A stretch of DNA of 57,119 nt, taken from the NCBI GenBank assembly GCA_964484805.1, contig CAZAGU010000001.1:1-57119 (forward strand), given 5' to 3'. This stretch comes from an uncultured bacterium. GTDB lineage: Bacteria > Electryoneota > AABM5-125-24 > Hatepunaeales > Hatepunaeaceae. The translations under genes were made by a program, and so were the position numbers. Shown here one piece after another: positions 27,177 to 57,119 of this stretch; within the stretch, counting starts at the first letter, position 1, and the number at the start of each line of letters is the position of its first letter. The notes below the pieces were generated by a model that saw only the letters and a program-made list of their open reading frames with translations, ran no database searches and was not told where the DNA came from.

Positions 27177-27953
27177 ATGTTTTTATGGAATCCAGAACTT
27201 CTCGAAGGATTTTTTCTCGCCTTTCTGCGTTGTAGTACAGCGCTCGTTTTAATGCCTATCTTCGGTTTTAACGGAATACCCAATCAGATCAAAGCAGGTC
27301 TGGCGCTTATTTTGGCAATCATCATGGCTCCAGAAGCCAGTCAGAATCTGTTTAACGCTCCACCGGGTGTGATGGCAATGGCAACAGTGGCTATCAGTGA
27401 GGTTCTGGTAGGGCTGGTGTTTGGCATGGTGACCACGCTGATTTTAGTCAGTGCTGAGTTTGCTGGCACTATCGTTGGAATGCAAATGGGGTTTGCCATC
27501 GTCAATCTGTTTGATCCGCAACTTGGTCAAGTAGCGTTGATTGGACGCTACCAGTATTTCGTTGCGATGATTATTTTCCTTTGCTTGGATATGCACCTGC
27601 CATTTTTACGAGCTCTTGGCGATAGCTTTGTTCTCATCCCGCTGGGGAGCGCGTTGTTTCAGGATGCCATTGCGATGCAATATGCGCGTCTTTCTGCGCA
27701 AGTGTTTGTTATTGCAATAAAAATTGCTGCGCCAGTGATGGCGATGATGTTCATTACCGAGCTGACTCTTGGTGTGATTGCCAGAGTTGTGCCACAAATG
27801 AATGTGTTCATCGTTGGATTTCCATTGAAAATTGGTGTTGGAATGTACGGATTGGTAATAACAGGTCCGTTGTTTGTATTTGTAATTGCGAAGGTTTTTC
27901 GTGGATATGAGCATGAACTCAGGACGATAATGATCTTGTTATCTGGGTCATAA
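27177..27953 (+). CDS. fliR: Flagellar export apparatus protein FliR
   Basis: 258-aa polytopic protein. FLLAFLRCSTALVLMPIFG and the FliR-type helices. Follows fliQ. Confidence 0.9.
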   Translation: MFLWNPELLEGFFLAFLRCSTALVLMPIFGFNGIPNQIKAGLALILAIIMAPEASQNLFNAPPGVMAMATVAISEVLVGLVFGMVTTLILVSAEFAGTIVGMQMGFAIVNLFDPQLGQVALIGRYQYFVAMIIFLCLDMHLPFLRALGDSFVLIPLGSALFQDAIAMQYARLSAQVFVIAIKIAAPVMAMMFITELTLGVIARVVPQMNVFIVGFPLKIGVGMYGLVITGPLFVFVIAKVFRGYEHELRTIMILLSGS

Positions 27954-28089
27954 CTGAGCAGTAATTGCGTTTTGAATTTTCAGATGTCTTGTGAGTACAG
28001 TTTTAGATTATTATATTATAAATCTTGTTAATTATGCATGTTGGGATTGCTCCCACCATCAACCACATTTGAACTTCATGGGAGAAAAG

Positions 28090-29955
28090 ATGTCTTCTCG
28101 AATAATGCGTTTTCTGTTCTTGTTTTTCGTCGTCCTGACAGTTGGCATAATAGCCTGCGATAGTGGTGGCGATGACAATAGCAATCCTGTTATCCCTAAC
28201 TCTGACACACTTGGCACAGTGTCTGGATTTGTGTATGATGATGATACCGACTTGCCCATTTCTGGCGCTACGATTGTTTCAGATGATAGCGTTTCAGCAA
28301 CTTCAGGTGAAGACGGAAGTTACACAATGGACATCAGCCTGGGCGATCGAACGCTCATAGCTTCGGCTCAAGGTTATGAACCCCAGCAGAAAACTGTGAC
28401 CACCCTTGATGATTTTCCGAAGACAAAACGCTTCGATCTGAATCCAATTCCTGTGCAGGAAGAGATTTCCACAGTCACCGGAACCATCATCAGCGCTGAA
28501 GATAGTTCGGCAGTTCAAAGCGCTATAGTTACTTGTGATGGTGAGGATGTTTATACAAACTCCTCTGGTGTCTATACTGTTGTCGTTTCTGTGGGAACGC
28601 ATACGGTATCGGTCGTTATATCTGGTTTTGTCGCTCAGGAACAGGAAGTGGAATGTCTGATTGGTGAAACCCAGACCGTTGATTTTGTTCTGGAACCTGC
28701 TTACGCCGAACGCGGAACTGTGCATGGGAAAGTCTTCGATGGTCGCTCAAACGACCCGATTCCCGGCGCTCGCGTGGCTTATGGTGACGACGAAATTTAT
28801 TCCGATAATTCAGGCGACTATGAAATCCTTCTTAATCCAGGTTCTCATGTGATCGTTGTTTCGGCTGCGGGTTATGTTACATTAGGACAGGATGTTGAGG
28901 TAGCTGTGCGAGGCAACCACATTCTGGACTATGCCATGGATGCATCTGGAGTTGGCGAATTTGGTATGGTGACTGGTCAAGTCTTAGATGCCACCACAAA
29001 CTCCCCGATTGGCGGTGTCAGATTAAGTTGTGTCACTGAAGTCGCCGTTACCGATGGACATGGTGTTTACTCCTTCCGAGTTCCAGCAGGCAATCAGGTT
29101 ATCCTTGCCCAAGCCAACGGCTATAATTCTGTCAGCTTGCCAGTGGTTATTATCTCCAATCAGGTTCACAGCTTGAGCTTCACCATGACACCAATTGGTG
29201 GCGGTGATGAAACAGGTATTTTACAGGGTCGTGTTACTGATGCAAGCAACGGTGGCGGCATCAACGCCGCAACTGTTGCTTGTGCCGGAAGAACCACACG
29301 CACCGATGCCAGCGGCAATTATTCGCTTCAGGTTCCCATTGGCAATCAGTCAGCGACAGCGTCACAGATTGGCTATACTTCTCAAAGCCGGCAGGTGGCC
29401 ATTAATGCGGGACAGCACACAACGCAGAACTTCACCTTGTCGCCCGGTGGCGGTGGTGGAGATGAATTCGGCAATGTATCAGGACGGATTTCCGATTCAT
29501 CGAACAACCACGGCATTTATCTGGCGTTAGTCGAATGTGGTGGCAAGACAACACGAAGTGACTTCAGCGGGAATTATCTTCTTTCTGATGTGGCTGTCGG
29601 CAACCAGACAGTCGATGTTTCTGCCGAAGGCTATCATTCTGCAAGTTATCCAGTGGTGGTGATAGCAAACCAGACTTCGACTGTCAACATTGCCATGGCC
29701 CCGGATGCGGGAAGCGGCACTGGGCGTATTAGTGGGCGTGTTACCAATAGCGGTGGATCTCCAATTGCAGGAGCAACCGTTCGTTCCGATGATGGTCCAT
29801 CAACTAGCACTGACGGTAGTGGTCGTTATCAGTTTGATGTCGGCGCTGGCAACAGGTCTATCACAGCAAGCGCAGGCGGCTATAGTCCGTCCTCGCAAAA
29901 TTTAGCGGTGCAGACCAATCGTAGCTATACTGTTAATTTTGTGCTGACAAACTAG
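28090..29955 (+). CDS. Lipoprotein with seven tandem carboxypeptidase-regulatory-like (CarboxypepD_reg/Ig-like beta-sandwich) domains
   Basis: GGAG lies 8 nt upstream of the ATG at 28090. Signal plus lipobox: FLFFVVLTVGIIAC. Seven ~85-95-aa repeats fit the pattern G.v.G.V.D....pi.GA.V......t.tD..G.Y.l.v..G...v..s..GY......v. Confidence 0.8.
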   Translation: MSSRIMRFLFLFFVVLTVGIIACDSGGDDNSNPVIPNSDTLGTVSGFVYDDDTDLPISGATIVSDDSVSATSGEDGSYTMDISLGDRTLIASAQGYEPQQKTVTTLDDFPKTKRFDLNPIPVQEEISTVTGTIISAEDSSAVQSAIVTCDGEDVYTNSSGVYTVVVSVGTHTVSVVISGFVAQEQEVECLIGETQTVDFVLEPAYAERGTVHGKVFDGRSNDPIPGARVAYGDDEIYSDNSGDYEILLNPGSHVIVVSAAGYVTLGQDVEVAVRGNHILDYAMDASGVGEFGMVTGQVLDATTNSPIGGVRLSCVTEVAVTDGHGVYSFRVPAGNQVILAQANGYNSVSLPVVIISNQVHSLSFTMTPIGGGDETGILQGRVTDASNGGGINAATVACAGRTTRTDASGNYSLQVPIGNQSATASQIGYTSQSRQVAINAGQHTTQNFTLSPGGGGGDEFGNVSGRISDSSNNHGIYLALVECGGKTTRSDFSGNYLLSDVAVGNQTVDVSAEGYHSASYPVVVIANQTSTVNIAMAPDAGSGTGRISGRVTNSGGSPIAGATVRSDDGPSTSTDGSGRYQFDVGAGNRSITASAGGYSPSSQNLAVQTNRSYTVNFVLTN

Positions 29956-41479: not shown

Positions 41480-42034
41480 TTATTCATTGAATTTTTTTAG
41501 ATACTTTTCCCGACAATAGTCGGGACATAAAAATTCCACGTTAATACCTTTTTCCTTGAGAGCGTCCTTCCAACCCCACCATTTGCTGTCAGTTGCTTGT
41601 AAGATGGGTGGTTTTTGGGGATGAGCGTTTGCCACTGCAACGAATTTGCGATCTGATAAATCAAAATCCTTTAACCCTTCGTGCATAGGAAATTCTTTAT
41701 AACTATCTCCTTGCTTTGTAATTTTTACACGGTAATCCTGTGGAAGTTGCCACCGAAAATCATGCACCAATTTTAGGAACATATCTCCGACGCCAGGCTG
41801 ACCTTGCAGGTTAAGTTTATGTCTATATTCATCATATATCTCGTTGCCTTCATCCATGACAAATGATTTATTATTTGAAACCTGTCGTATTGCCTCAACA
41901 CAATTTTCAATGCATTCAATTAATGACAAATCAGTAATATCATTGAGGTCTCTAACTTTATTCGCTGTGATAGGCACGTTAGTATCAACAACACACTTGG
42001 TTGGAAATTTAGCCATTTGCGTCCTCACGGGCAT
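41480..42034 (-). CDS. PIN-like domain protein (putative nuclease effector), partner of the upstream ATPase
   Basis: KCVVDTNVPITAN is the first PIN Asp motif. MDEGNEIYDEY and DLSDRKFVAVANA supply further acidic positions in PIN-like order. Its start (42034 or ATG 42016) overlaps the ATPase stop at 42009. AT-rich. Confidence 0.6.
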   Translation of the reverse strand: MPVRTQMAKFPTKCVVDTNVPITANKVRDLNDITDLSLIECIENCVEAIRQVSNNKSFVMDEGNEIYDEYRHKLNLQGQPGVGDMFLKLVHDFRWQLPQDYRVKITKQGDSYKEFPMHEGLKDFDLSDRKFVAVANAHPQKPPILQATDSKWWGWKDALKEKGINVEFLCPDYCREKYLKKFNE

Positions 42035-43424
42035 CTAAAATCTGTTGTTTCCTTCTACTTAAGGCTGCTTTTGATTGTTCTACGATATCGGTCATTTCAT
42101 CTCCGAAGAAGTCCTTTGGCCAATTTTCTATATTGCCGAACAGATCAATCTGAAGAGGAATTAATTTAGCTGGATGTTGTGTGGCATCAGCGAAATATGC
42201 CGCAACATCATCTTTCGAGATGGTTTCATCGGCGATTCTTCGCTGAATTCGTCTGAGAAAATGTTCGGAGTGAGTCTCAATAATCAATTGAACATTTCTA
42301 TCGTTATTATTTTCTCGAGCTTTTACAGCATCAATCATTACATCAGCCAGAGCAGATTGGGCGCTGGGGTGCAGATGAATTTCGGGTTGTTCCATTATAA
42401 TTATCGAATTCTTAGGAGCATAAAACACCTGAGTGATAACAGGAAGCACCTGTGAAACACCGAATCCAACATCAGGCAAACTCACATAAGAATTTGACCC
42501 TTTAGTTTTTAGTTTCACTTCATATTCGTGCCTTCCTTCCGCAATAGCTTTAACCTTAAAATCATCAATTATATTCATTTCTTTTAATTTTTTTGCAATA
42601 ACTTCACTAAATGATTTGTAACGCGTATTTTTTCCGAAATTAATCTTTCGATTTCTTGCTGCAAGAATTGCAGCTATAGTATTTTCTCCAGAATACCCGA
42701 CACTTTCTGGTTCATTGCCTGACCATGAATAAATCCGTTCTGTTTTTGTTCTTAGTGGACCTAAATAGAACATCGAGCCAAACATATTCTCGTGGTGAAG
42801 GTTTAGTCCTTTAACGAAATCTGCGTTTTGATGGTAGGCAACAAACTCATCAGTAAATCCATAAAATCGCATAGGATTTCCAAGATCCCATGGTCTTCCC
42901 TTTTGCCTGACTAACTTAAACTTTTCTTTATCGCATTCAGCTGAATAGTTCCCCTTGTTATCCTTGATATTCATGCCAATAGAGATCAAATCAATGCCTT
43001 CATCGTTGTAGAGTGTATAATTAAAATTGGCAACAGATAGTGCAGGTTTCTCCTTGTCTCTAAATTCAAGTGCAGATTCAAAAAGTAATGATTTCCCTTT
43101 GTATGGATTATTGGTTACTGGGTCTTTAATGGTCAATGACTCAGGCATATTCCATTTATATTGGAATTTAATGTCATTTTCTGTGTTTCGTTCAAAAACC
43201 ATTTCATTGAAGGAACCGAGTTGAACAGGGGAATTGTTTTCTCCGGGAAAGAGTACAGCTTTTCTGTCCGCAGATTCCACGGTTTGTTTCAGCATCATCA
43301 GGAACTGACCGATACTCGATTTTCCAGAGCTGTTTGTTCCGAAAAATATGGTGATAGGCGCTAAACGTATTCGACCTGTATCTTTCCAGATTTTAAAGTT
43401 TTGGATTCTTAGTTCGTTCAGCAT
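42009..43424 (-). CDS. ABC/SMC-type AAA ATPase with DUF3696-like C-terminal region
   Basis: LRIQNFKIW...ITIFFGTNSSGKSS (Walker A), YLGPLR, signature-like DVGFGVSQVLP, Walker B IIIMEQPEIHLHP, H-loop IIETHSEH, and C-terminal ...IENWPKDFFGDE. GGGAG lies upstream of the ATG. Confidence 0.82.
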   Translation of the reverse strand: MLNELRIQNFKIWKDTGRIRLAPITIFFGTNSSGKSSIGQFLMMLKQTVESADRKAVLFPGENNSPVQLGSFNEMVFERNTENDIKFQYKWNMPESLTIKDPVTNNPYKGKSLLFESALEFRDKEKPALSVANFNYTLYNDEGIDLISIGMNIKDNKGNYSAECDKEKFKLVRQKGRPWDLGNPMRFYGFTDEFVAYHQNADFVKGLNLHHENMFGSMFYLGPLRTKTERIYSWSGNEPESVGYSGENTIAAILAARNRKINFGKNTRYKSFSEVIAKKLKEMNIIDDFKVKAIAEGRHEYEVKLKTKGSNSYVSLPDVGFGVSQVLPVITQVFYAPKNSIIIMEQPEIHLHPSAQSALADVMIDAVKARENNNDRNVQLIIETHSEHFLRRIQRRIADETISKDDVAAYFADATQHPAKLIPLQIDLFGNIENWPKDFFGDEMTDIVEQSKAALSRRKQQILDAREDANG

Positions 43425-49626: not shown

Positions 49627-50514
49627 ATGACTTTTCGTAAAATTTTACTAGGACTGTTAGTCCTATTGCTGGGTGTTGCGACTGCACCCGCTCAAGTGAT
49701 GCAGATTCACACCGACGATGGGGAGACAGCATCATTCAATCTTGCTGATGTTGACAGTATTACATTTGCTGAGGAGGGAGAAGGACCTCAAGCCGGTGAT
49801 GAACGTGAGTTTCAACTGACCGATGACGTAACCGTTACAATGGTTTGGATTCCATCCGGTGAATTTGAAATGGGTAGTCCAAACGATGAGGATGGCCGCC
49901 AAGTTAGTGAGGGACCGGTTCATTCTGTACAATTTGAGAACGGTTTTTGGGTTGGTAAGCATGAGGTAATTCAAGCCCAATGGGAAGCGGTGATGGGTGA
50001 TAATCCTGCTCACGATTATGGTATTGGTGATAATCATCCGGTATATTATGTTAGTTGGGATGACATACAGGAATTTGAGGCTGAATTGGATAATAATTTT
50101 CGTTTGCCATCGGAGTCAGAATGGGAGTATGCTTGTCGAGCAGGAACGAATACACGTTTTTACTGGGGCGATGATCCCGATTATGAAGACATTGGCGATT
50201 ATGCTGTTTATAGCGAAAATAATCCAGATGGAACTACTGATGTAGGGACGAAGTTGCCCAACGCCTGGGGATTATATGATATGAGTGGTAATGTTTGGGA
50301 GTGGTGTGAGGATCGCTGGCATACCGATTATGATGATGCACCGGATGATGGTAGTCCATGGTTGGAAAACTCAGAAGGCGGCACTATTCGGATCTGGCGT
50401 GGTGCTGGCTTTCTCTATTATCCTTGGTTCTGCCGTTCGGCGCAACGCTATGCTACCTCACCTTCCTTCCGGGATTACCACATCGGCTTCCGCCTTGTCC
50501 GAGATGCTGATTGA
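49627..50514 (+). CDS. Formylglycine-generating-enzyme (SUMF1/FGE-sulfatase) family protein, secreted
   Basis: Signal peptide. MVWIPSGEFEMGSP, HPVYYVSWDDIQEF, FRLPSESEWEYACRAG, NAWGLYDMSGNVWEWCED, IGFRLV. Confidence 0.88.
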   Translation: MTFRKILLGLLVLLLGVATAPAQVMQIHTDDGETASFNLADVDSITFAEEGEGPQAGDEREFQLTDDVTVTMVWIPSGEFEMGSPNDEDGRQVSEGPVHSVQFENGFWVGKHEVIQAQWEAVMGDNPAHDYGIGDNHPVYYVSWDDIQEFEAELDNNFRLPSESEWEYACRAGTNTRFYWGDDPDYEDIGDYAVYSENNPDGTTDVGTKLPNAWGLYDMSGNVWEWCEDRWHTDYDDAPDDGSPWLENSEGGTIRIWRGAGFLYYPWFCRSAQRYATSPSFRDYHIGFRLVRDAD

Positions 50515-50533
50515 ATTTGCAAATATTTACAGC

Positions 50534-50585
50534 AATAACACGGATTAAGCAGATTTCAATCTGCCTAATCCGTGTTATTTTTTTA
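50534..50585. terminator. Long hairpin terminator between convergent genes
   Basis: AATAACACGGATTAAGCAGATTtcAATCTGCCTAATCCGTGTTATT followed by TTTTTT. Confidence 0.68.
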
Positions 50586-50604
50586 TGGGAAATCGGTGGC
50601 ATTG

Positions 50605-51312
50605 CTACCGAATCGAGACAAACCGCTGGCTGGCGGTTCCCAGATCACCCGTGACCATCAGGAAATACACGCCATTGGCAAGCTGACGAGGCATCGGAAT
50701 GTTGTAAACCCCTGCCGACATTGCACCGCTCAGAAGCGTCTCCATTCGCTGACCAGCGACATTATACACTGCCACAGATAAATTTGACAAGCTCGGCACG
50801 TTCAACTGCCAGCCATCGGCGCTGAAACCAGCATGATTCTGCAAATCGTAGGACAAGCGATTGTTAGAACGAGGCGCTTGGTCGCCGCCTACGCCAGTTT
50901 CACCAACCGTCAGGACGAAGGTGATTTCTTCGCGGATGTTAGTGTCTGCTTCAGCCACCATTAACATTGTTGCCCATCCCACACCCTCGGTTTCGTTGGT
51001 ATGAAACTTAACAAACAATGTGTCCCTGCCATTTGGTGGTAAAACCAATGTATCTTGTGTTATCCAGGGAGCCCAGCAGAAAAGCAAACCCTGGCAAATT
51101 TCCACCGTCCAGCCCTCAGGTGTATTGGATGTTAATGTCCACAGAATATGATTCTCCTGATCCCATTGATTTACGATCAGAGAGCCAAAAATATTGAGAT
51201 CATCAGGAACGCCGATACCCTCGGTAGAATCTGGTGTTACTTCGAATTGCTGTGCCATTATTGGAGTGGCAAGCAGCAGGATTGCTAAAAACAATATGTT
51301 GCTAACACGCAT
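50605..51312 (-). CDS. Secreted protein with T9SS-type C-terminal sorting domain
   Basis: Signal peptide: MRVSNILFLAILLLATPIMAQ. C-terminal LSVAVYNVAGQRMETLLSG..SAGVYNIPMP..LANGVYFLMVTG...RFVSIR. Confidence 0.7.
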   Translation of the reverse strand: MRVSNILFLAILLLATPIMAQQFEVTPDSTEGIGVPDDLNIFGSLIVNQWDQENHILWTLTSNTPEGWTVEICQGLLFCWAPWITQDTLVLPPNGRDTLFVKFHTNETEGVGWATMLMVAEADTNIREEITFVLTVGETGVGGDQAPRSNNRLSYDLQNHAGFSADGWQLNVPSLSNLSVAVYNVAGQRMETLLSGAMSAGVYNIPMPRQLANGVYFLMVTGDLGTASQRFVSIR

Positions 51313-51356
51313 AATGTATCCTTAAGTTAGTTGTTTCGGGCGTGTGTTTTGTTAAA

Positions 51357-52367
51357 CTAATTTTCAGATTGGGACAAAAGTCCGTTTACCTTGCCTCTGA
51401 GTTCCTCTTCTAAAACTGATGGAAGCACTTCGGCAATCTTGCCGGTTCGGTCAACCAGAATGTTTCGTGGGAAGGGATTCACGCCATAAAGCGTTGTTGT
51501 TACATAACGATCCCAATCGAGGAGCAATTGGAATGTCAAGCCCAGTTCACTGCGCACCCGAAGCACTTCATCACGGTCATCCGGGAACATGGGATTAATC
51601 GCCAGTATCTTAAAACCTGAACTGCCGAGGTCGCGATAGACGTTTTCAATGCCGGGGAATTCATGAATACAAGGTGTGCAGTCTGCATACCAGAAATTTA
51701 CTAGCACAACATAGCCGGTCAGGTCGCTGAGGCGTACCGAATCACCCTCGACATTCTCGCGCGTGAAGTCGAACGGGAGCTTTCCGGCTTCCTGCGCAGT
51801 TTCAACTTCGGCTAATGTAAACTCAAAGTCTGTTGTCTCACCGGCGCGGACTTCGGCAGATGGTAACAACGGAGAGACAGTGGCGTGACCTTCCAGATGA
51901 ACCGATAGCTGATAAACGCCCCAGGGAAGATACAGATTTGCCGGTGTTCGAGCCAGTTCGCCATTAATTTCCACAGCGTGTCCATCCATCAGCACTCTAG
52001 CGCCTGATGGATTTGAAGTAACAGCCAGAATTCCGGTCTGTCCGACAGCCACAGGTGTGAGCGTAAATTCGGACACGGTTGTGTCACCACTGGTGATAAC
52101 GGCTTCAGACATTTTACTGAAGAAACCCAGCTTGCGCACAGTGACTTCGTGGGTGCCTGTTCGCAGTCCATTCAGAATTGCGGGAGTGCGCTCGGCGCGC
52201 TCGACATTGTCAACGAGGACGGTTGCGCCTGTTATTTCCGCACCCAGCGTATCGACGGCGCTGACAAACAGGAAGCCTTCGTGGCCGCCTTCAACCTCTT
52301 CAATTGCACATCCTGCCAAAGACACCAGAAAAGTGAAAATCAGTAGTGTATTAAAAATATGTCGCAT
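51357..52367 (-). CDS. Lipoprotein: two PEGA/Ig-like domains fused to a TlpA/ResA-like thioredoxin-fold (CxxC) domain
   Basis: Lipobox: FLVSLAGC. PEGA-like: GATVLVDNVERAERTPAIL..LRTGTHEVTVRKLGF and GARVLMDGH..ARTPANLYLPWGVYQLSVHLEGH. Redoxin: VLVNFWYADCTPCIHEFP. Confidence 0.8.
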   Translation of the reverse strand: MRHIFNTLLIFTFLVSLAGCAIEEVEGGHEGFLFVSAVDTLGAEITGATVLVDNVERAERTPAILNGLRTGTHEVTVRKLGFFSKMSEAVITSGDTTVSEFTLTPVAVGQTGILAVTSNPSGARVLMDGHAVEINGELARTPANLYLPWGVYQLSVHLEGHATVSPLLPSAEVRAGETTDFEFTLAEVETAQEAGKLPFDFTRENVEGDSVRLSDLTGYVVLVNFWYADCTPCIHEFPGIENVYRDLGSSGFKILAINPMFPDDRDEVLRVRSELGLTFQLLLDWDRYVTTTLYGVNPFPRNILVDRTGKIAEVLPSVLEEELRGKVNGLLSQSEN

Positions 52368-52414
52368 TTTTCTTTTTCGTGAAATTGTCTAAAATCAGCC
52401 AGTATCTCCAGAGA

Positions 52415-53143
52415 TTATTGCTGATCTTTATTTACCGGGAAGCTTAACTTCCAACCAACACCAATTTCATCACCATAAAGTGTTACGTTGCCACCCTTGA
52501 TACCTAAGGCTGAAAGAGTGCCAATGAGAAGGTCAGGCAGTTTCTCATCTTTCCAGAATTTTATCTGGTCTGCATAAGTCGAAGGTTGCTCAAGCTCAGC
52601 GGAAACAGACCAAAACTCGGAGGACTTTGCTGTGTTAATCCTAAGCTTGCCTTTGCCTTTTAAAACATTAATAAAAAGCATGAGCATTTCTAAAAAGATA
52701 AACTCAAGAATGGATGGATCATAATAGAGGAGAAGTTGCTTTTTCTCATCAGGGAATTCGACATCCAATCCATCCAACAATGTTCTGCGTTTAAACGCGA
52801 ACAGGGCATTGTTCAGGGTTTGATATGGATTAACCTCGGCTTTTTTTCCGGTCAGCCGTGATCCGAAACTTCCCACTCGCCCGATGGTGTTTTCAATGCG
52901 AGAAATTTGATCCATAATCAAATTCAATCTGCTATTTAAATCATCGGTGTCAAGTCCATCCCTTTTCATCTGCATTATTTGAACATTGCCAGAGATAACC
53001 GTGAGGGCATTGCCAATATCGTGCATGATTGCGCTGGACATATAGCCGAGTGCGCTTATGCGGCAAAGATCAGTGCAATAATCGCTGATCTGAGTAGTCA
53101 AATGTTTTGGCGGTTCGGGAGTAAACTCGAATTTATGAGTCAT
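52415..53143 (-). CDS. Soluble histidine-kinase-like protein (HisKA-type H-box, degenerate ATP-binding domain, no sensor domain)
   Basis: H-box: LGYMSSAIMHDIGNALTVISGNVQIM. I could not recognise N, G1 (DxGxG) or G2 boxes in the C-terminal half. Its start overlaps the stop of the upstream gene (ATGA). Confidence 0.58.
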   Translation of the reverse strand: MTHKFEFTPEPPKHLTTQISDYCTDLCRISALGYMSSAIMHDIGNALTVISGNVQIMQMKRDGLDTDDLNSRLNLIMDQISRIENTIGRVGSFGSRLTGKKAEVNPYQTLNNALFAFKRRTLLDGLDVEFPDEKKQLLLYYDPSILEFIFLEMLMLFINVLKGKGKLRINTAKSSEFWSVSAELEQPSTYADQIKFWKDEKLPDLLIGTLSALGIKGGNVTLYGDEIGVGWKLSFPVNKDQQ

Positions 53144-54798
53144 ACGGTCTCCCCTTTTCCTGCTAGTTTTGCTAAATTTATTACCATAGAGACTTCATCA
53201 CGCCCTAAATTTAGAGAGCGAGCGATTTCGAGTTCAGTTTGTCCTTGTGCAGCCATGTCGAGAATCCTTGACACCGGAATTCTGCTGTCTTCGCCTTGAA
53301 CTCTATCATGCTGAAACTGTGTTTCAGTAGGTTGCTGAGGTTCTCGTGGTGGGCGAGATTCATGCTTATATGCGTTGGAAACTCTTTGTGAATAGGCGGT
53401 GTTGCTATCGTCAACCCGTCCTCGATACCTGTCATCTTCGGAGGAGTAATAGGCTTCACGCCTCGAGGTTGTTGGGCGTTGCGAAAATCCGCCATTGGCA
53501 TTATTGTATTCAGAGTCTCTGGAATGATCAGAGCGGAAATCCCGTCGAGAATCGTAACGATCCTCGCTAACGAATTGCTCGGCATCAAAGTTCGGATGTC
53601 TGTTACGTCGGGAAAAATCTGATGTCTGGTAGTCTTGCTCCTGATAATCTGCCATTTCCTGTTCCCAGGATGGAGGCTTTGGAGCGTAGTTGTCTTCAAT
53701 TGGGTCAAATCCCGACATTGTGTTTATCGGTGATTCTTTCCGGTATCGTTCCCCACTTGCAGGTTGCATGGGTCTTTCGCGCGATCCAAAGTCATAATTG
53801 CGATGACGGCTGGGGTTAGGATGTACCGCCGCGGGTTTGGCGTTTCGGCTGTCAAAAACAAATTTAATCAACACTAATGCGCCAATGAGCAAAAGAGACC
53901 ATCCGATAAATTTAAAGCTACTTTCGCCAGCTTTGAGGATTTCTTTAGCTCGTTCGCCAACGTCACTTTCCACTTCACGAGGTGGAGTCTGAATAATTTG
54001 TCTTTCAAGCGGTTGTCTATTTGATGTAGTCAAACCCGTGTGAACTGGCGTTGATTGTTGCGCAGGCTGTTGCCCGTGAAAATAGGTTGCCCATTCTCGT
54101 CCAGAGGATGTGGTGTCGCCCATTGCCAGATATATCATCGCGCGTCGGGCTCGCACATCGGCGGCATAGCGAGGGTCGTTGCACAGGCTGGCGAAGCTTG
54201 CCAGCGCGGCATCGAATCGTTTAAGCTTATGCTGGATAATACCAGCACGATGGGTGAAATCCGGTTCGTTTGGCTCAATGTTGCGGATGTGCTCGATGTA
54301 CGGCAGAGCGACTTCGTAGCGGTGCATTCTCTCGGCAGCTTCTGCTTCAGCCAGATATGTGTCAAGGCTGAGTTCGTAGGGCAGTTGGCGGGCTATGTCT
54401 TCAGTTGGGCTGATATCAATCATCAGCGCGGTGGGACCTGTTACCATGTAGGTTCGCAGAAAGGCGGTCTTATGAAAATGAATTACTAACGTCGCGCCGT
54501 CATATCCACGTGAGATGTCTTTTATCAGCGGGCTTGCCGCAAGATTCTGAATCTGGCGTTCGGTGCGTTCGGAAAGGGTTGTCTGTGAAATGTCAACACG
54601 GCACTCTGCGAGAACGCGGTCATATTGCAGACTGGTTTGAGACAGAGAGTCATAGTAGATCACAAGCAATTCATAACCGGCATAAACACCGCGTTGAATG
54701 TCTGTGATCTGATTTGCATTAGCAACAGGTATTACTAAGAAAAACAGAGTCATTGTTAAAAAAACAATGAGGGTAGCTTTGTTACGAGTTGTTGTCAT
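53140..54798 (-). CDS. Membrane protein: signal/TM, AMIN-like beta domain, TPR, TM, R/D/Y/S-rich disordered region, C-terminal HTH-like module
   Basis: N-terminal TM segment: LIVFLTMTLFFLVIPVANA. TPR-like: YLAEAEAAERMHRYEVALPYIEHIRNIEPNEP...ALASFASLCND. Second TM segment: FIGWSLLLIGALVLIKFVF. Low-complexity tail. C-terminus: SRILDMAAQGQTELEIARSLNLGRDEVSMVINLAKL. Confidence 0.6.
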   Translation of the reverse strand: MTTTRNKATLIVFLTMTLFFLVIPVANANQITDIQRGVYAGYELLVIYYDSLSQTSLQYDRVLAECRVDISQTTLSERTERQIQNLAASPLIKDISRGYDGATLVIHFHKTAFLRTYMVTGPTALMIDISPTEDIARQLPYELSLDTYLAEAEAAERMHRYEVALPYIEHIRNIEPNEPDFTHRAGIIQHKLKRFDAALASFASLCNDPRYAADVRARRAMIYLAMGDTTSSGREWATYFHGQQPAQQSTPVHTGLTTSNRQPLERQIIQTPPREVESDVGERAKEILKAGESSFKFIGWSLLLIGALVLIKFVFDSRNAKPAAVHPNPSRHRNYDFGSRERPMQPASGERYRKESPINTMSGFDPIEDNYAPKPPSWEQEMADYQEQDYQTSDFSRRNRHPNFDAEQFVSEDRYDSRRDFRSDHSRDSEYNNANGGFSQRPTTSRREAYYSSEDDRYRGRVDDSNTAYSQRVSNAYKHESRPPREPQQPTETQFQHDRVQGEDSRIPVSRILDMAAQGQTELEIARSLNLGRDEVSMVINLAKLAGKGETV

Positions 54799-55678
54799 CT
54801 CTGAGGACTTTTAAAAATTCCTGTGCCCTTTCCATTTCGCGTTCGAGTAAATCTTCGTAGTAAGGCCAGTCAATTTCGCCTTCTTCGGTTTGTTTAAGAT
54901 TCAGATATGCGCCAACTTTTGGGTGAAGGTCTGGGAGAATTTCATCGTTAAACAGCCCATACCCCAGGCGTTTAGCGAGATGATCCGAGAAATGCACCAA
55001 CATCCCAAGATTTGGCCTCCTGAATGATAGCCAAGGATTTGGATGATCGTAAACTGCCGCAATCTGATGCGTTGGAAGTTTCCACGATTCCAACAACCAC
55101 CCACCTAAATCGGCATGGTTAAATCCGAGTATATCCATTTCAGCATCATACAAATCAGTTCCATGATATCGAGCTTCATAGAGAGCCTTTTTGTATAACT
55201 CGGATATCTCATTGCACAATATCAGCACGCCGACATCATGCAATAGCCCACTGATGAATATCTCCCCAGTAATCTTAAAGCTACCTTCTTGCCCAAGAAT
55301 CTTACACCCCGCGGCGACAGCAATCGAGTGTGTCCAAAATTTGATGGGTTTAAAGAATTCATCACATTCGCCACCACCGAAGGTTTTAACAACAGTTGCC
55401 GCAAGAGCCAGATCCTTGACAGATTGAAATCCTAAAACGACAATAGCGAGGTTGATTGTGCCGATTTTGTGCGGAAATCCATAGAATGCCGAATTCGCCA
55501 GCTTAAGAATTTTCGATGTCATCGGTGGGTCATTGCTGATGAAACGCGCCAGTTTGGGCGCTGTTGTATTGGGGTCGTCCACCAATTCAATCAGCTTCAT
55601 CATAACGACCGGTAAAGTCGGCATGTTTTTTACATAATGAGCAATCTGGCTCACTCTTTCCATCCGGCTGGATTCCAA
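54782..55678 (-). CDS. HDOD-domain signalling protein
   Basis: MPTLPVVMMKLIELVDDPNTTAPKLARFISNDPPMTSKILKLANSAFYGFPHKIGTINLAIVVLG and HSIAVA...GLLHDVG are typical of HDOD. AAGGAGG lies upstream of the start. Confidence 0.87.
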   Translation of the reverse strand: MESSRMERVSQIAHYVKNMPTLPVVMMKLIELVDDPNTTAPKLARFISNDPPMTSKILKLANSAFYGFPHKIGTINLAIVVLGFQSVKDLALAATVVKTFGGGECDEFFKPIKFWTHSIAVAAGCKILGQEGSFKITGEIFISGLLHDVGVLILCNEISELYKKALYEARYHGTDLYDAEMDILGFNHADLGGWLLESWKLPTHQIAAVYDHPNPWLSFRRPNLGMLVHFSDHLAKRLGYGLFNDEILPDLHPKVGAYLNLKQTEEGEIDWPYYEDLLEREMERAQEFLKVLRDDNNS

Positions 55679-55800
55679 TGACTTACCTCCTTAAAATCGG
55701 CTAAATGTCAGAATAACGTTAAAATCACATCCATAAAATAACGAACTTGTTGGCAACGATGCGCATTGCAAGTCACATCTCAGGCATATTTCCAAAAATT

Positions 55801-56016
55801 TTATGCCTGGATGTCTATTTTTTTGCCCTTAATCTCTGCAGATTGTTCGCTGCTGCCAGAATTTTGCTTGTTGCGTTTACGTTTTTTCTGGCTATCTGCG
55901 GTGTCGCCTTTTTTTCGTTCATCAGGGGGCGCGCTCTCTTGCCGACGTTGAACGACTTTGTGCTTTGGAGCCTTTGTGACGGAACCTAGTCCCTCACTCC
56001 TGTTTATCTCAGCCAT
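55801..56016 (-). CDS. Hypothetical small, highly basic low-complexity protein downstream of fliA
   Basis: AAGGAA lies 1 nt upstream of the ATG, and the ATG is 5 nt after the fliA stop. K/R/S/Q-rich (KKRKRNKQNSGSS). Competing plus-strand ORFs overlap it, so coding status is uncertain. Confidence 0.35.
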   Translation of the reverse strand: MAEINRSEGLGSVTKAPKHKVVQRRQESAPPDERKKGDTADSQKKRKRNKQNSGSSEQSAEIKGKKIDIQA

Positions 56017-56021
56017 TTCCT

Positions 56022-56798
56022 TTACTCAAGTAGTTTGCGCAAGCGTACTCTAAGTATAGTAATGATTTTTGTGTGAATCTGACATACTCGCGATTCGCTT
56101 ACGCCGATTACTTCACCAATTTCTCTGAAAGTTAAACTTTCATAATAATATAGCGCTACGACGGTGCGTTCCTGATCTGACAACTCGTCTATCAGGTGAA
56201 GCGCCGTCTGTTGAATGTCTGCTTCTTCCACCATATCGTATGGATTTTGTTGAGCGTCATCAGAAATGACTTCGTACAATGAACCACCATCACCCTCAGC
56301 CCCGGATACATGGATATCTAATGAAACCAGTGAGGCTGCGCCAACATGGTCGATATATTTGTAGTACTCGTCAAGGTTCATTTCGAGTTCTTTGGCGATC
56401 TCTTCATCAGTAGGAATTCTTCCGAGTCTTGCGAACAGCTTCTCCATCGTTTGATCCAACTTCCGGCTCTTCTGGCGATATGATCTTGGAAGCCAATCAA
56501 CGTCTCTTAAGCCATCAAGTATTGCTCCGCGAACTCTTGGTGCCGCGTATGTTTCAAACTTAAATCCACGCTTTGGGTTGAAATTATCTATGCTATTTAT
56601 CAGCCCAATGAGACCAGAACTCACAAGGTCGTTATACTCAACCGAACCGGGCAAGGTGACTTTCATCCTTCCAGCGATGATTTTAACCAGAGAGAGGTAG
56701 TGAATCAGGAGACTTTCTCTGATGTTCTCATCTCGCGTATCCTGGAATTTATTCCAGAGTTCATCAATCTGAGTATCGTTCAATGTGTCCGTGCTCAC
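56022..56798 (-). CDS. fliA: Flagellar sigma factor FliA (sigma28/WhiG family)
   Basis: Region 2: LLIHYLSLVKIIAGRM...DLVSSGLIGLINSIDNFNPKRGFKFETYAAPRVRGAILD. Region 3. Region 4: ESLTFREIGEVIGVSESRVCQIHTKII. Confidence 0.9.
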   Translation of the reverse strand: MSTDTLNDTQIDELWNKFQDTRDENIRESLLIHYLSLVKIIAGRMKVTLPGSVEYNDLVSSGLIGLINSIDNFNPKRGFKFETYAAPRVRGAILDGLRDVDWLPRSYRQKSRKLDQTMEKLFARLGRIPTDEEIAKELEMNLDEYYKYIDHVGAASLVSLDIHVSGAEGDGGSLYEVISDDAQQNPYDMVEEADIQQTALHLIDELSDQERTVVALYYYESLTFREIGEVIGVSESRVCQIHTKIITILRVRLRKLLE

Positions 56799-57119
56799 AC
56801 TCCTGCTCCGGTTTCAAAAGGCTTTTCAGGTATCGGAGAATCTTCCATTTCCTCTAGTTTTTCTCTCTCAAGCTTTGCCTGATAAGCTGCATTTGCTTCA
56901 GCAGCTTCCTCCTCGGCTTTCTCGCGAATTTTTCGGTTAGCTTCGGCAACAGACCACTGCTGTGCGCGAAGCAAAATAATCTCGATTGAAAATACTATTA
57001 TTGAGCCAATCAGATAAACAATGACCGAGTGGTAGAGGCTCATTAATAGCTTAACGCTGTTCATTGTACTCCAGATGAAAGTACAAAGCGTTAGTATCAG
57101 AACACCTTGATGAAAGAGC
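56795..57119 (-). CDS. Hypothetical membrane/coiled-coil protein upstream of fliA (5' end may lie beyond the window)
   Basis: The ATG at 57064 is listed, but the frame stays open to nt 57118 (..LFHQGVLILTLCTFIWST-M..). Hydrophobic N-terminus plus an E/A/K-rich helix. Its stop overlaps the fliA start. Confidence 0.45.
   Translation of the reverse strand, partial: LFHQGVLILTLCTFIWSTMNSVKLLMSLYHSVIVYLIGSIIVFSIEIILLRAQQWSVAEANRKIREKAEEEAAEANAAYQAKLEREKLEEMEDSPIPEKPFETGAGV

Follow-up and report, generated by a model that had tools for sequence, protein, structure and literature searches.

The DNA stretch under study is the entire contig CAZAGU010000001.1 (57,119 bp), from an uncultured marine bacterium of the Electryoneota, in the FCB group; it is called the window here. 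Its subject is the gene string around fliA, the gene of sigma-28, the sigma factor for flagella, which occupies the minus strand from 50.6 kb to the window end. Eight co-directional genes with short or overlapping spacing are found there, from position 50605 onwards (Table 1). In our analysis this region probably forms the downstream part of a flagellar operon with the order ...flhA-flhF-flhG-flgV-fliA-small protein-TM+HTH, where TM+HTH denotes a protein with a transmembrane (TM) helix and a helix-turn-helix domain, and the genes of an HDOD-domain protein and of a pseudo-kinase are a lineage-specific addition to it. The flhG gene and those before it would lie just outside the window, because the contig breaks in the gene at the flgV position.

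Organization of the gene string

An earlier reading of the same letters (the sequence-only reading) had proposed six co-directional minus-strand open reading frames (ORFs) as one unit, and their positions were borne out by the ORF list and the domain calls. The stop of the small membrane gene overlaps the fliA start in a GTGA at 56795-56798, the HDOD gene overlaps the 552-aa gene by 17 nt (54782-54798) and the latter overlaps the kinase-like gene in an ATGA (53140-53143); all three overlaps, claimed earlier, are real. The remaining gaps measure 5 nt between fliA and the 71-aa ORF, 122 nt between this ORF and the HDOD gene, 47 nt between the kinase-like and PEGA/TlpA genes and 44 nt between the latter and the gene with the tail of the type IX secretion system (T9SS). 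The genes listed in the earlier reading do belong to the string, but the conserved string reaches two genes further, through PEGA/TlpA to the T9SS-tail gene.

Table 1. Positions of the features of the fliA gene string in the window, and of proteins with a similar C-terminal peptide in distant loci (AF2, AlphaFold2 model).
Feature	Position	Strand	Basis or remark
FlgV-position small membrane protein	56795..57119	-	incomplete, N-terminus lost at contig end; frame open to 57119
fliA, sigma-28 (FliA/WhiG family), 258 aa	56022..56798	-	GTG start; Pfam Sigma70 r2, r3, r4; TIGR02479
Small lysine/arginine (K/R)-rich disordered protein, 71 aa	55801..56016	-	ORF conserved after fliA
C-terminal peptide of the small ORF	55801-55830	-	K-G-x-K-I-D-I-Q-[AV]
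HDOD-domain protein, 298 aa	54782..55678	-	PF08668; TTG start
SwrB-family (DUF6115) TM+HTH protein, 552 aa	53140..54798	-	PF19610; AF2 architecture
Periplasmic beta-sandwich, aa 29-131 of the 552-aa protein	54406..54714	-	AF2
Periplasmic TPR helices, aa 145-240 of the 552-aa protein	54079..54366	-	AF2, Pfam in relatives, Foldseek
TM helix, aa 295-319 of the 552-aa protein	53842..53916	-	AF2; FKFIGWSLLLIGALVLIKFVF hydrophobic stretch
Cytoplasmic HTH-like three-helix C-terminal domain, aa 509-551 of the 552-aa protein	53146..53274	-	AF2, DUF6115/DUF2802
Histidine-kinase-like soluble protein, 242 aa, DHp + CA-like	52415..53143	-	PF00512; AF2; Foldseek
PEGA/CarboxypepD_reg + TlpA/ResA-like thioredoxin lipoprotein	51357..52367	-	Pfam, NCBIfam
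235-aa protein with T9SS C-terminal sorting domain	50605..51312	-	TIGR04183; last conserved gene of the string
FlgV-position protein with peptide	L007 9604-9897, L008 7707-8021, L010 9704-9982
Post-FapA or post-fliA small protein with peptide	L007 12575-12901, L008 10531-10851, L009 10890-11219, L010 12448-12765

No terminator-like site or hairpin was detected by the terminator scan on the coding strand in 50000-57119, and the promoter scan gave fewer sigma-70-like sites than shuffled sequence predicts. Pfam showed no match to FlgM, CheY or receiver (REC) domains in the eight genes scanned, in agreement with the earlier statement that no anti-sigma factor, CheY or response regulator is present. 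A sigma-28-like motif, TAAC-N16-GCCGATTT, was read by eye before the ribosome-binding site of the HDOD gene (55690-55725, minus strand). It is probably a chance occurrence and was dropped, because it is not conserved in the related loci L003, L015 and L017 or in the type C loci described below and lies too near the ribosome-binding site and start codon.

The contig end and the place of flhF-flhG

The flagellar structural cluster (flgB, flgC, fliE, fliF ... fliJ, fliK ... fliP, fliR) was located on the plus strand at 7797-27953, so the separation of about 28 kb, on opposite strands, given for fliA in the sequence-only reading is correct (about 28.8 kb from the fliR end at 27953). The accompanying claim that fliA is detached from flhF-flhG is an effect of the contig end. 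With queries from a relative, FlhB, FlhA, FlhF and FlhG gave no tblastn match in all 57 kb, while FliR was recovered at 27369-27899 in the same comparison; these essential genes therefore lie elsewhere in the genome. The genes flgK and flgL are also not in the window. The fliR gene is followed on the plus strand by genes of an S-layer-like protein, DinG, ApbE and Rnf. The first of these (27991-29955), directly after fliR, encodes 654 aa with five Kustd1514-type S-layer glycoprotein repeats (1e-58); it occupies the flhB place of relatives and marks a break in the flagellar cluster.

Base 57119, inside the FlgV-like gene, is where three assemblies end: the window contig, a Logan unitig and, at its position 1, the ENA contig L001, which stems from a different sample. 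The Logan unitig with this sequence comes from one marine metagenome run at about 4x depth, and the shared stop suggests either that the assembly graph branches here, owing to a repeat or to variation between strains, or that coverage fails at this depth. In relatives the order flhA-flhF-flhG-2TM-fliA-small ORF, where 2TM is the small two-TM protein, was found in seven loci (L003, L004, L005, L006, L015, L017 and L021), with fliR-flhB preceding flhA in L005 and L017. L022 has flhF-flhG-fliA, and L030 shows 2TM-fliA-small ORF. Every relative that reaches upstream has flhF-flhG directly before the small membrane gene or fliA, and most show flhA too. The break point from fliR varies, since flhA follows unrelated genes in L015 and L021 and fliR-flhB-flhA is continuous in L017. 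In the window a flh...fliA operon, split from fliR, likely starts just beyond base 57119. A departure of fliA from flhF-flhG is unsupported, because the contig ends in the upstream gene and the relatives keep flhF-flhG adjacent; the mistaken view of a detached fliA, which arose from the contig end, is thereby corrected.

Synteny in related loci

The arrangement recurs in more than 12 independent contigs and exceeds chance; FliA was found to be 64-78% identical to that of the window (L003, L004, L005, L006), and the kinase-like protein 25-47% identical. The order fliA, small ORF, (HDOD), TM+HTH, kinase-like gene is present in eight loci, namely the window, L005, L015, L017, L021, L022, L023 and L030, which upholds the expectation of synteny with fliA in relatives; it is in these same eight that contigs with the TM+HTH and kinase-like genes extend upstream, and there fliA and the small ORF are present. 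In 14 of about 18 distinct loci the kinase-like gene comes immediately after the TM+HTH gene, in most cases with an overlap, and this pairing is the strongest new association in our study.

Three types of locus can be distinguished. Type A (the window, L015 and L017) has fliA, small ORF, HDOD, TM+HTH, kinase-like gene, PEGA/TlpA and T9SS cargo, the TM+HTH protein being either long or, in L015, of 340 aa and devoid of the periplasmic module; partial strings consistent with this order occur in L003, L022, L023 and L031. Type B (L005, L021, L030 and L033) consists of fliA, small ORF, a short TM+HTH gene and the kinase-like gene. Type C (L013/L014, L019 and L020, and also L026 on a shorter contig) has WD40 and HDOD, then some 350 bp of non-coding DNA, and after it the kinase-like gene, PEGA/TlpA and T9SS cargo; in L013/L014, L019 and L020 neither fliA nor any other flagellar gene lies within 10 kb. 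The gaps of type C are unusually long (335-380 bp in L013, L019 and L020), have stops in all frames and lie at the place held by the TM+HTH gene in other lineages; neither an ORF nor a TM+HTH remnant was found in them, and a deletion may have left them as a scar, or they may be regulatory. Type C looks derived, because its kinase-like proteins are closer to that of the window (39-41% identity) than are those of the type A loci L015 and L017 (34%). The type C loci also imply that the kinase-like protein is not strictly dependent on the SwrB-like TM+HTH partner, and that the HDOD/kinase/TlpA/T9SS half is separable from sigma-28. The earlier description of the whole set as a sigma-28-associated unit is thus right as regards the synteny with fliA, but this half is not strictly bound to it.

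The small membrane protein at the FlgV position

A small membrane gene whose stop overlaps the fliA start had been described with a length of 89 aa; the gene and its overlap stand, but that length does not, as the gene is truncated by the contig end and its frame runs on without a stop to the window's final base. Its homologues have 95-109 aa, with about 13 extra N-terminal residues in the alignment relative to the window copy. The protein aligns with 103-109-aa proteins encoded between flhG and fliA in L003-L006, the homologues elsewhere having 95-102 aa. The hydropathy profile has two hydrophobic segments, followed by an acidic coiled tail, which is the two-TM and polar-tail layout of FlgV. 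The location of the FlgV gene between flhG and the sigma-28 gene is matched in L003-L006, L015, L017 and L021, and the window shows the fliA side of it only. At the start of the second TM segment, where FlgV has a fixed Arg, the residue is His in the window, Arg in L003 and Lys in L004-L006. A phmmer comparison gave a weak match to a Planctomycetota ORF (E 0.006 in a small database). By position and architecture the window protein fits a FlgV-like protein at the FlgV position and is not a proven FlgV member.

FlgV has been described as a 2TM protein with a disordered polar tail, encoded after flhG in a sub-module with sigma-28, FapA, YjfB and the TM+HTH protein (Zamba-Campero et al. 2024, PMC10802407). 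The string in the window resembles this sub-module in the 2TM small protein with a polar tail between flhG and fliA, and in the small protein and the TM+HTH protein downstream of fliA, the order being equal in the relatives examined. On the other hand, FapA is absent here, the small protein has no Pfam match to YjfB, HDOD and the pseudo-kinase are added, the TM+HTH protein has a periplasmic extension, and the tail of the 2TM protein differs from that of FlgV, as does its variable basic residue (His/Lys/Arg) in the second TM segment. Further, the phyla named in PMC10802407 do not include the FCB group or Calditrichota. Distant loci show the published order itself, with flhF-flhG-(PilZ)-2TM-fliA-FapA-small protein of about 106 aa in L007, L008 and L010; the TM+HTH gene is next in L007 and L010, and the L008 contig ends before that point. 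In L009, from Planctomycetota, the order is flhF-flhG-2TM-fliA-109-aa protein.

The core of the string (2TM, sigma-28, small protein and TM+HTH) is therefore already published (PMC10802407). The new elements are confined to the inserted HDOD gene and to a pseudo-kinase gene paired with that of the TM+HTH protein. The label of an undescribed module, given in the sequence-only reading, holds for these two features and not for the core.

The 552-aa protein and its relation to SwrB

The C-terminus of the 552-aa protein matches PF19610 (DUF6115) with 32.7 bits against a gathering cut-off of 27, and DUF2802 weakly. PF19610 is matched by 17 of 22 family members, and the TM+HTH proteins of L007 and L010 match both DUF6115 and DUF2802. 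The profile search returned P0030, a Bacillus spizizenii fragment that bears the name 'Swarming motility protein SwrB', and an unnamed fragment closely similar to it (P0029), both of which carry PF19610. The C-termini of seven TM+HTH proteins, made into a profile without any SwrB sequence, were compared by hhalign with the fragments P0030, P0029 and P0032, which gave a probability of 90% and E 1.6e-6 over 36 columns. An approximate B. subtilis SwrB sequence, which scores 27.0 bits to DUF6115 and has no exact database match, served as bait only. The profile comparisons place the 552-aa protein in the SwrB/DUF6115 family.

In B. subtilis swrB follows sigD, and SwrB (YlxL) is needed for sigma-D-dependent expression and activates flagellar type III export. 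The L155P substitution near its C-terminus is a loss-of-function change which lowers the activity of a sigma-D reporter; by count on the approximate sequence, it presumably falls inside the domain common to SwrB and the 552-aa protein. Likenesses of the present string to sigD-swrB are a gene that follows the flagellar sigma factor, a homologous C-terminal HTH-like domain, a single membrane anchor and a cytoplasmic C-terminus. SwrB differs in having 167 aa and no periplasmic domain, whereas the window protein has 552 aa with signal peptide, beta-sandwich, TPR and a disordered stretch; the TM His of SwrB is not conserved in it, and the HDOD gene and kinase-like partner are absent from the swrB neighbourhood. 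SwrB is mentioned 0 times in the FlgV paper (PMC10802407). The identification of the 'TM+HTH' flagellar protein with SwrB is a modest new link, because the FlgV paper omits SwrB and the SwrB papers call it Bacillus-specific. If true, it would mean that the SwrB family reaches far beyond Bacillus, where experimental papers confine it, and that a widespread unnamed protein gains a testable role in licensing flagellar type III export and sigma-28 activity. It would also mean that the family can gain a periplasmic scaffold-like module and a dedicated pseudo-kinase partner, with a hint of how assembly state might feed phosphorelay signalling.

The AF2 model, built on a 22-sequence alignment, confidently predicts a signal/TM helix (3-22), a beta-sandwich (29-131), TPR helices (145-240) and a TM helix (295-319), followed by a disordered stretch of about 185 aa up to the HTH-like domain at 509-551. 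The predicted local distance difference test (pLDDT) score is about 95 for the all-beta domain, above 95 for TPR and 96 for HTH, and basic residues come after the TM stretch. The bitopic TPR/TM/disorder/HTH architecture of the sequence-only reading is thereby recovered. Its AMIN domain is unsupported, as Pfam found no AMIN (PF11741) match in the window protein (E <= 0.1) or in any of the 22 family members (E <= 0.01). TPR was matched by Pfam in 15 of the 22, and the Foldseek matches of this part are consensus TPR proteins and MamA. Members of the family may or may not have the periplasmic module: the window, L003, L017, L022 and L023 have it, and the shorter proteins of L015 (340 aa), L005 (168 aa) and L021 (160 aa) do not. 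In an exhaustive search with residues 1-310, about 22 related clusters were found among 1.84 billion representatives, the others being generic TPR proteins; a word-index search with the full 552 aa returned the protein itself only, as its candidates were probably swamped by the low-complexity disordered region.

For the whole model, Foldseek places first 9hmf_K (E 5e-5, 280 columns), a chain of 773 residues which corresponds to residues 16-788 of C. jejuni PflA. The TM-scores of this match are low (0.16 and 0.12) and the entry is a C-alpha trace; a PDB profile search showed no sequence similarity to PflA. PflA is a periplasmic scaffold spoke of the motor made of a beta-sandwich and TPR (PMC12222027). 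The model resembles this protein of the Campylobacter/Helicobacter motor in an N-terminal beta-sandwich followed by TPR in the periplasm, but PflA has 16 TPR motifs and no cytoplasmic part. We regard the match as a lead, a predicted resemblance rather than membership.

The histidine-kinase-like protein

The 242-aa protein matches PF00512 (HisKA) at E 2.5e-6, has no sensor domain and belongs to a tight family of 23 homologues with 234-248 aa. In their alignment H41 and N45 are invariant and the His is followed by D or E in 23/23, giving H-[D/E]-x-x-N. The H-E/D-x-x-N/T motif of HisKA kinases serves both phosphotransfer and phosphatase chemistry. No Pfam match to HATPase_c was found in the 242-aa protein, and the N, G1 and G2 ATP boxes are lost: the ThkA N-box 'NLvqNA' stands opposite 'elLelf', the positions of the N-box Asn residues face E/Q and L, and the glycine motifs of G1 and G2 are absent from the alignment of the 23 homologues and in comparison with ThkA. 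The fold is retained in the AF2 model (pLDDT 88.7), with a DHp hairpin and an alpha/beta CA-like domain, and Foldseek gave matches of about 1e-10 to HK853, KinB, DivL and ChpT, and also to YycG. These comparisons show that the protein has a DHp+CA fold in which the H-box is intact and the ATP-binding boxes are degenerate. As a soluble, sensorless core with this sequence, it very probably cannot autophosphorylate.

The DHp hairpin with a CA-like domain devoid of ATP-binding motifs is shared with ChpT/Spo0B and DivL, and the soluble form without a sensor domain with ChpT/Spo0B; the ChpT/Spo0B layout fits, ChpT being among the fold matches. The best fold and sequence matches here are true kinases (HK853, ThkA), unlike ChpT and DivL, and, in difference from ChpT/Spo0B, no partner kinase or receiver is encoded nearby and the protein is known from its sequence and model only. 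Another comparison is FlgS of Campylobacter, a sensorless cytoplasmic histidine kinase with an activity that depends on the assembly of the export apparatus and MS-ring. FlgS is capable of autophosphorylation and has FlgR and sigma-54 as its partners. Both would be kinase cores reading the state of flagellar assembly, but the present protein lacks ATP-binding motifs and has no known partner.

The called start of the kinase-like gene in L022 (4462-5199) is an internal ATG, and the upstream open frame still encodes the H-box THSLCNALAILSGHIQII. This gene is probably of full length and overlaps the TM+HTH gene.

Sigma-28 and the small K/R-rich protein

FliA was assigned by a TIGR02479 FliA_WhiG match in NCBIfam of 255.2 bits (cut-off 189.6) and by Sigma-70 regions 2, 3 and 4 in Pfam. 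The 71-aa ORF that follows has 12 K and 6 R among its residues; the gene is real and conserved, standing directly after fliA in 12 loci with 71-82 aa. Its products share M-E-x-I ... P-L-[VI]-T at the N-terminus and K-G-x-K-I-D-I-Q-[AV] at the C-terminus, the part between them being charged and of low complexity. No Pfam family, FlgM (PF04316) and YjfB (PF14070) included, matched five members at E <= 10, on which ground an assignment to FlgM or YjfB was rejected. A YjfB match is also absent in the post-FapA small proteins of L007-L010. Homology to the latter is not claimed, as hhalign covers the last 7 residues only with a probability of 1%.

Three kinds of protein share a K-G-x-K-[IL]-D-[IL]-x-[AVI]-type peptide at the C-terminus, and these are the post-fliA small protein of this clade, the FlgV-position tails elsewhere and the post-FapA/post-fliA small proteins elsewhere. 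The FlgV-position proteins of L007, L008 and L010 have a K-G-K-K-I-D-I-T-V-type motif at or near the C-terminus, and the FlgV-like tail in the window clade is without a K-I-D-I-Q-type peptide. We take the peptide of the small protein to be similar to that of YjfB, as it is to the tails of the post-FapA proteins. The recurrence of the peptide suggests a common docking partner and is no proof of homology.

The HDOD protein and the downstream envelope genes

The HDOD domain (PF08668; 2.6e-54, 184 bits) covers residues 19-215 and positions 1-196 of the 196 of the profile, and the TTG start lies 7 nt after an AAGGAGG ribosome-binding site. The gene has the same position in L003, L015, L017, L022, L023 and L031. 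Among known HDOD proteins GsmR carries a receiver domain. SadB (Pseudomonas) and GsmR (Xanthomonas) are HDOD regulators of motility, and SadB is reported to bind cyclic di-GMP (PMC6543031). The likeness lies in an HDOD domain tied to flagellar gene expression or function; SadB has a YbaK-like domain whereas the window protein consists of HDOD only, and neither SadB nor GsmR is encoded beside fliA. The term 'HDOD' occurs 0 times in the paper on the FlgV sub-module (PMC10802407). PADLOC gave no matches for the HDOD and kinase-like proteins.

The lipoprotein gene downstream (AhpC-TSA 1.8e-17, PEGA 2.2e-16, ResA 4.8e-21) follows the kinase-like gene in nine further loci (L013, L015, L017, L019, L020, L024, L025, L026 and L027). 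The 235-aa T9SS-tail protein (TIGR04183, 9.6e-7) has homologues (1e-49 to 1e-56) after PEGA/TlpA in L013, L015, L019 and L020. These two genes are probably envelope neighbours and not flagellar parts.

Possible mechanism and alternative explanations

If the string is the end of a flagellar operon, its 2TM protein would work at the motor, like FlgV. The SwrB-like protein would sit in the membrane at or near the basal body, where its periplasmic beta-sandwich and TPR may touch motor or cell-wall structures, and it may help the flagellar type III export apparatus to change over to hook and late substrates and so raise sigma-28-dependent expression, as in B. subtilis. The kinase-like protein, presumably translationally coupled to the SwrB-like gene, might bind the cytoplasmic part of its partner and act as a ChpT/Spo0B-like phosphotransferase, phosphatase or scaffold for a receiver encoded elsewhere, and HDOD could be an accessory ligand-sensing input. 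A complete scheme, which we consider quite improbable, would have the SwrB-like protein and the ATP-blind kinase core jointly sense how far the flagellum is assembled: the PflA-like periplasmic part would read the motor or cell wall, the HTH-like domain would dock the kinase core, and His-Asp phosphotransfer to, or phosphatase action on, an orphan receiver would tune sigma-28 output. In the same scheme HDOD would be a nucleotide-sensing input and the K-I-D-I-Q-[AV]-tailed protein a motor-docking or anti-sigma component. If true, this would be a new route for a sigma-28 checkpoint, beside or replacing FlgM export.

A number of observations weigh against the flagellar interpretation or its parts. 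Co-transcription of the string is inferred from gene spacing and the missing terminator-like sites only. The likeness of the 552-aa protein to SwrB spans only about 36 C-terminal residues, the His required for the localisation and puncta of SwrB (H13, in its TM segment) has no equivalent in the TM segment FKFIGWSLLLIGALVLIKFVF, which contains no His, and Kearns and co-workers report SwrB to be conserved only in Bacillus. In the FlgV-like protein the conserved hydrophobic/basic C-terminal peptide of FlgV is missing, the tails of the aligned proteins ending differently, and hhalign against the proteins of four distant loci was weak (probability 20%, E 1e-3), the comparison being with FlgV-position proteins and not with a verified FlgV sequence. 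Moreover, Pfam found no receiver domain among the window genes scanned, and HDOD occurs with the kinase-like gene but without TM+HTH or fliA in L013/L014, L019, L020 and L026.

This last observation is the basis of an alternative in which a flagellar unit (FlgV-like, fliA, small protein, SwrB-like) merely stands beside an unrelated envelope/redox unit of HDOD, kinase-like protein, PEGA/TlpA thioredoxin lipoprotein and T9SS cargo, with no role in motility. L013/L014, L019 and L020 have HDOD, kinase-like, PEGA/TlpA and a 239-aa gene together away from flagellar genes, L026 has the same type C order as far as its contig extends, and the type C kinase-like proteins are those closer to the window. 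However, the type B loci keep the kinase-like gene with fliA, small ORF and TM+HTH in the absence of HDOD and TlpA, and in type A the TM+HTH gene lies between HDOD and the kinase-like gene and overlaps both; with the preference for TM+HTH directly before the kinase-like gene, these arrangements make the alternative unlikely. The further idea of the sequence-only reading, that a sigma-28 regulatory or positioning module arose when fliA left flhF-flhG and was captured by a signalling operon, draws on the distance and strand of fliA relative to fliR, on the HDOD and kinase-like genes that the published FlgV/sigma-28 sub-module does not contain and on the synteny in eight loci. It is very improbable in our view, as the gene before fliA is cut by the contig end, flhB, flhA, flhF and flhG are all missing from the window, flhF-flhG are directly upstream in every relative that reaches so far, and the core was described previously.

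As to the small K/R-rich protein, it could be the anti-sigma-28 of the lineage, a disordered analogue of FlgM perhaps exported by the flagellum. FlgM is intrinsically disordered, and so by composition appears the small protein, which always stands immediately after fliA; further, no FlgM was found among the window genes scanned. We hold this assignment to be very doubtful, since FlgM is not matched in Pfam even at E <= 10, and the tail of the protein resembles those of the FlgV-position and post-FapA proteins, which points to a shared motor-associated partner and not to sigma-28; moreover, the genome may have a canonical flgM outside the window, for instance beside flgK and flgL. The end of a flagellar operon with HDOD and a pseudo-kinase added thus remains the probable reading of the string as a whole.

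Other features of the contig

Rfam and tRNA scans of the window gave no hits. On the minus strand at 41480-43424, two overlapping genes match the candidate defence system HEC-03 of PADLOC, HEC-03A at 2e-29 and HEC-03B, an AAA_15/AAA_21/DUF3696 ATPase, at 3e-134. As the pair lies in a patch of low GC content (0.40 vs about 0.48), it probably represents an anti-phage island of small size. The low-GC left end of the contig encodes, on the plus strand at 93-1496, a type II DNA methyltransferase (PADLOC MTase_II, 9e-139).

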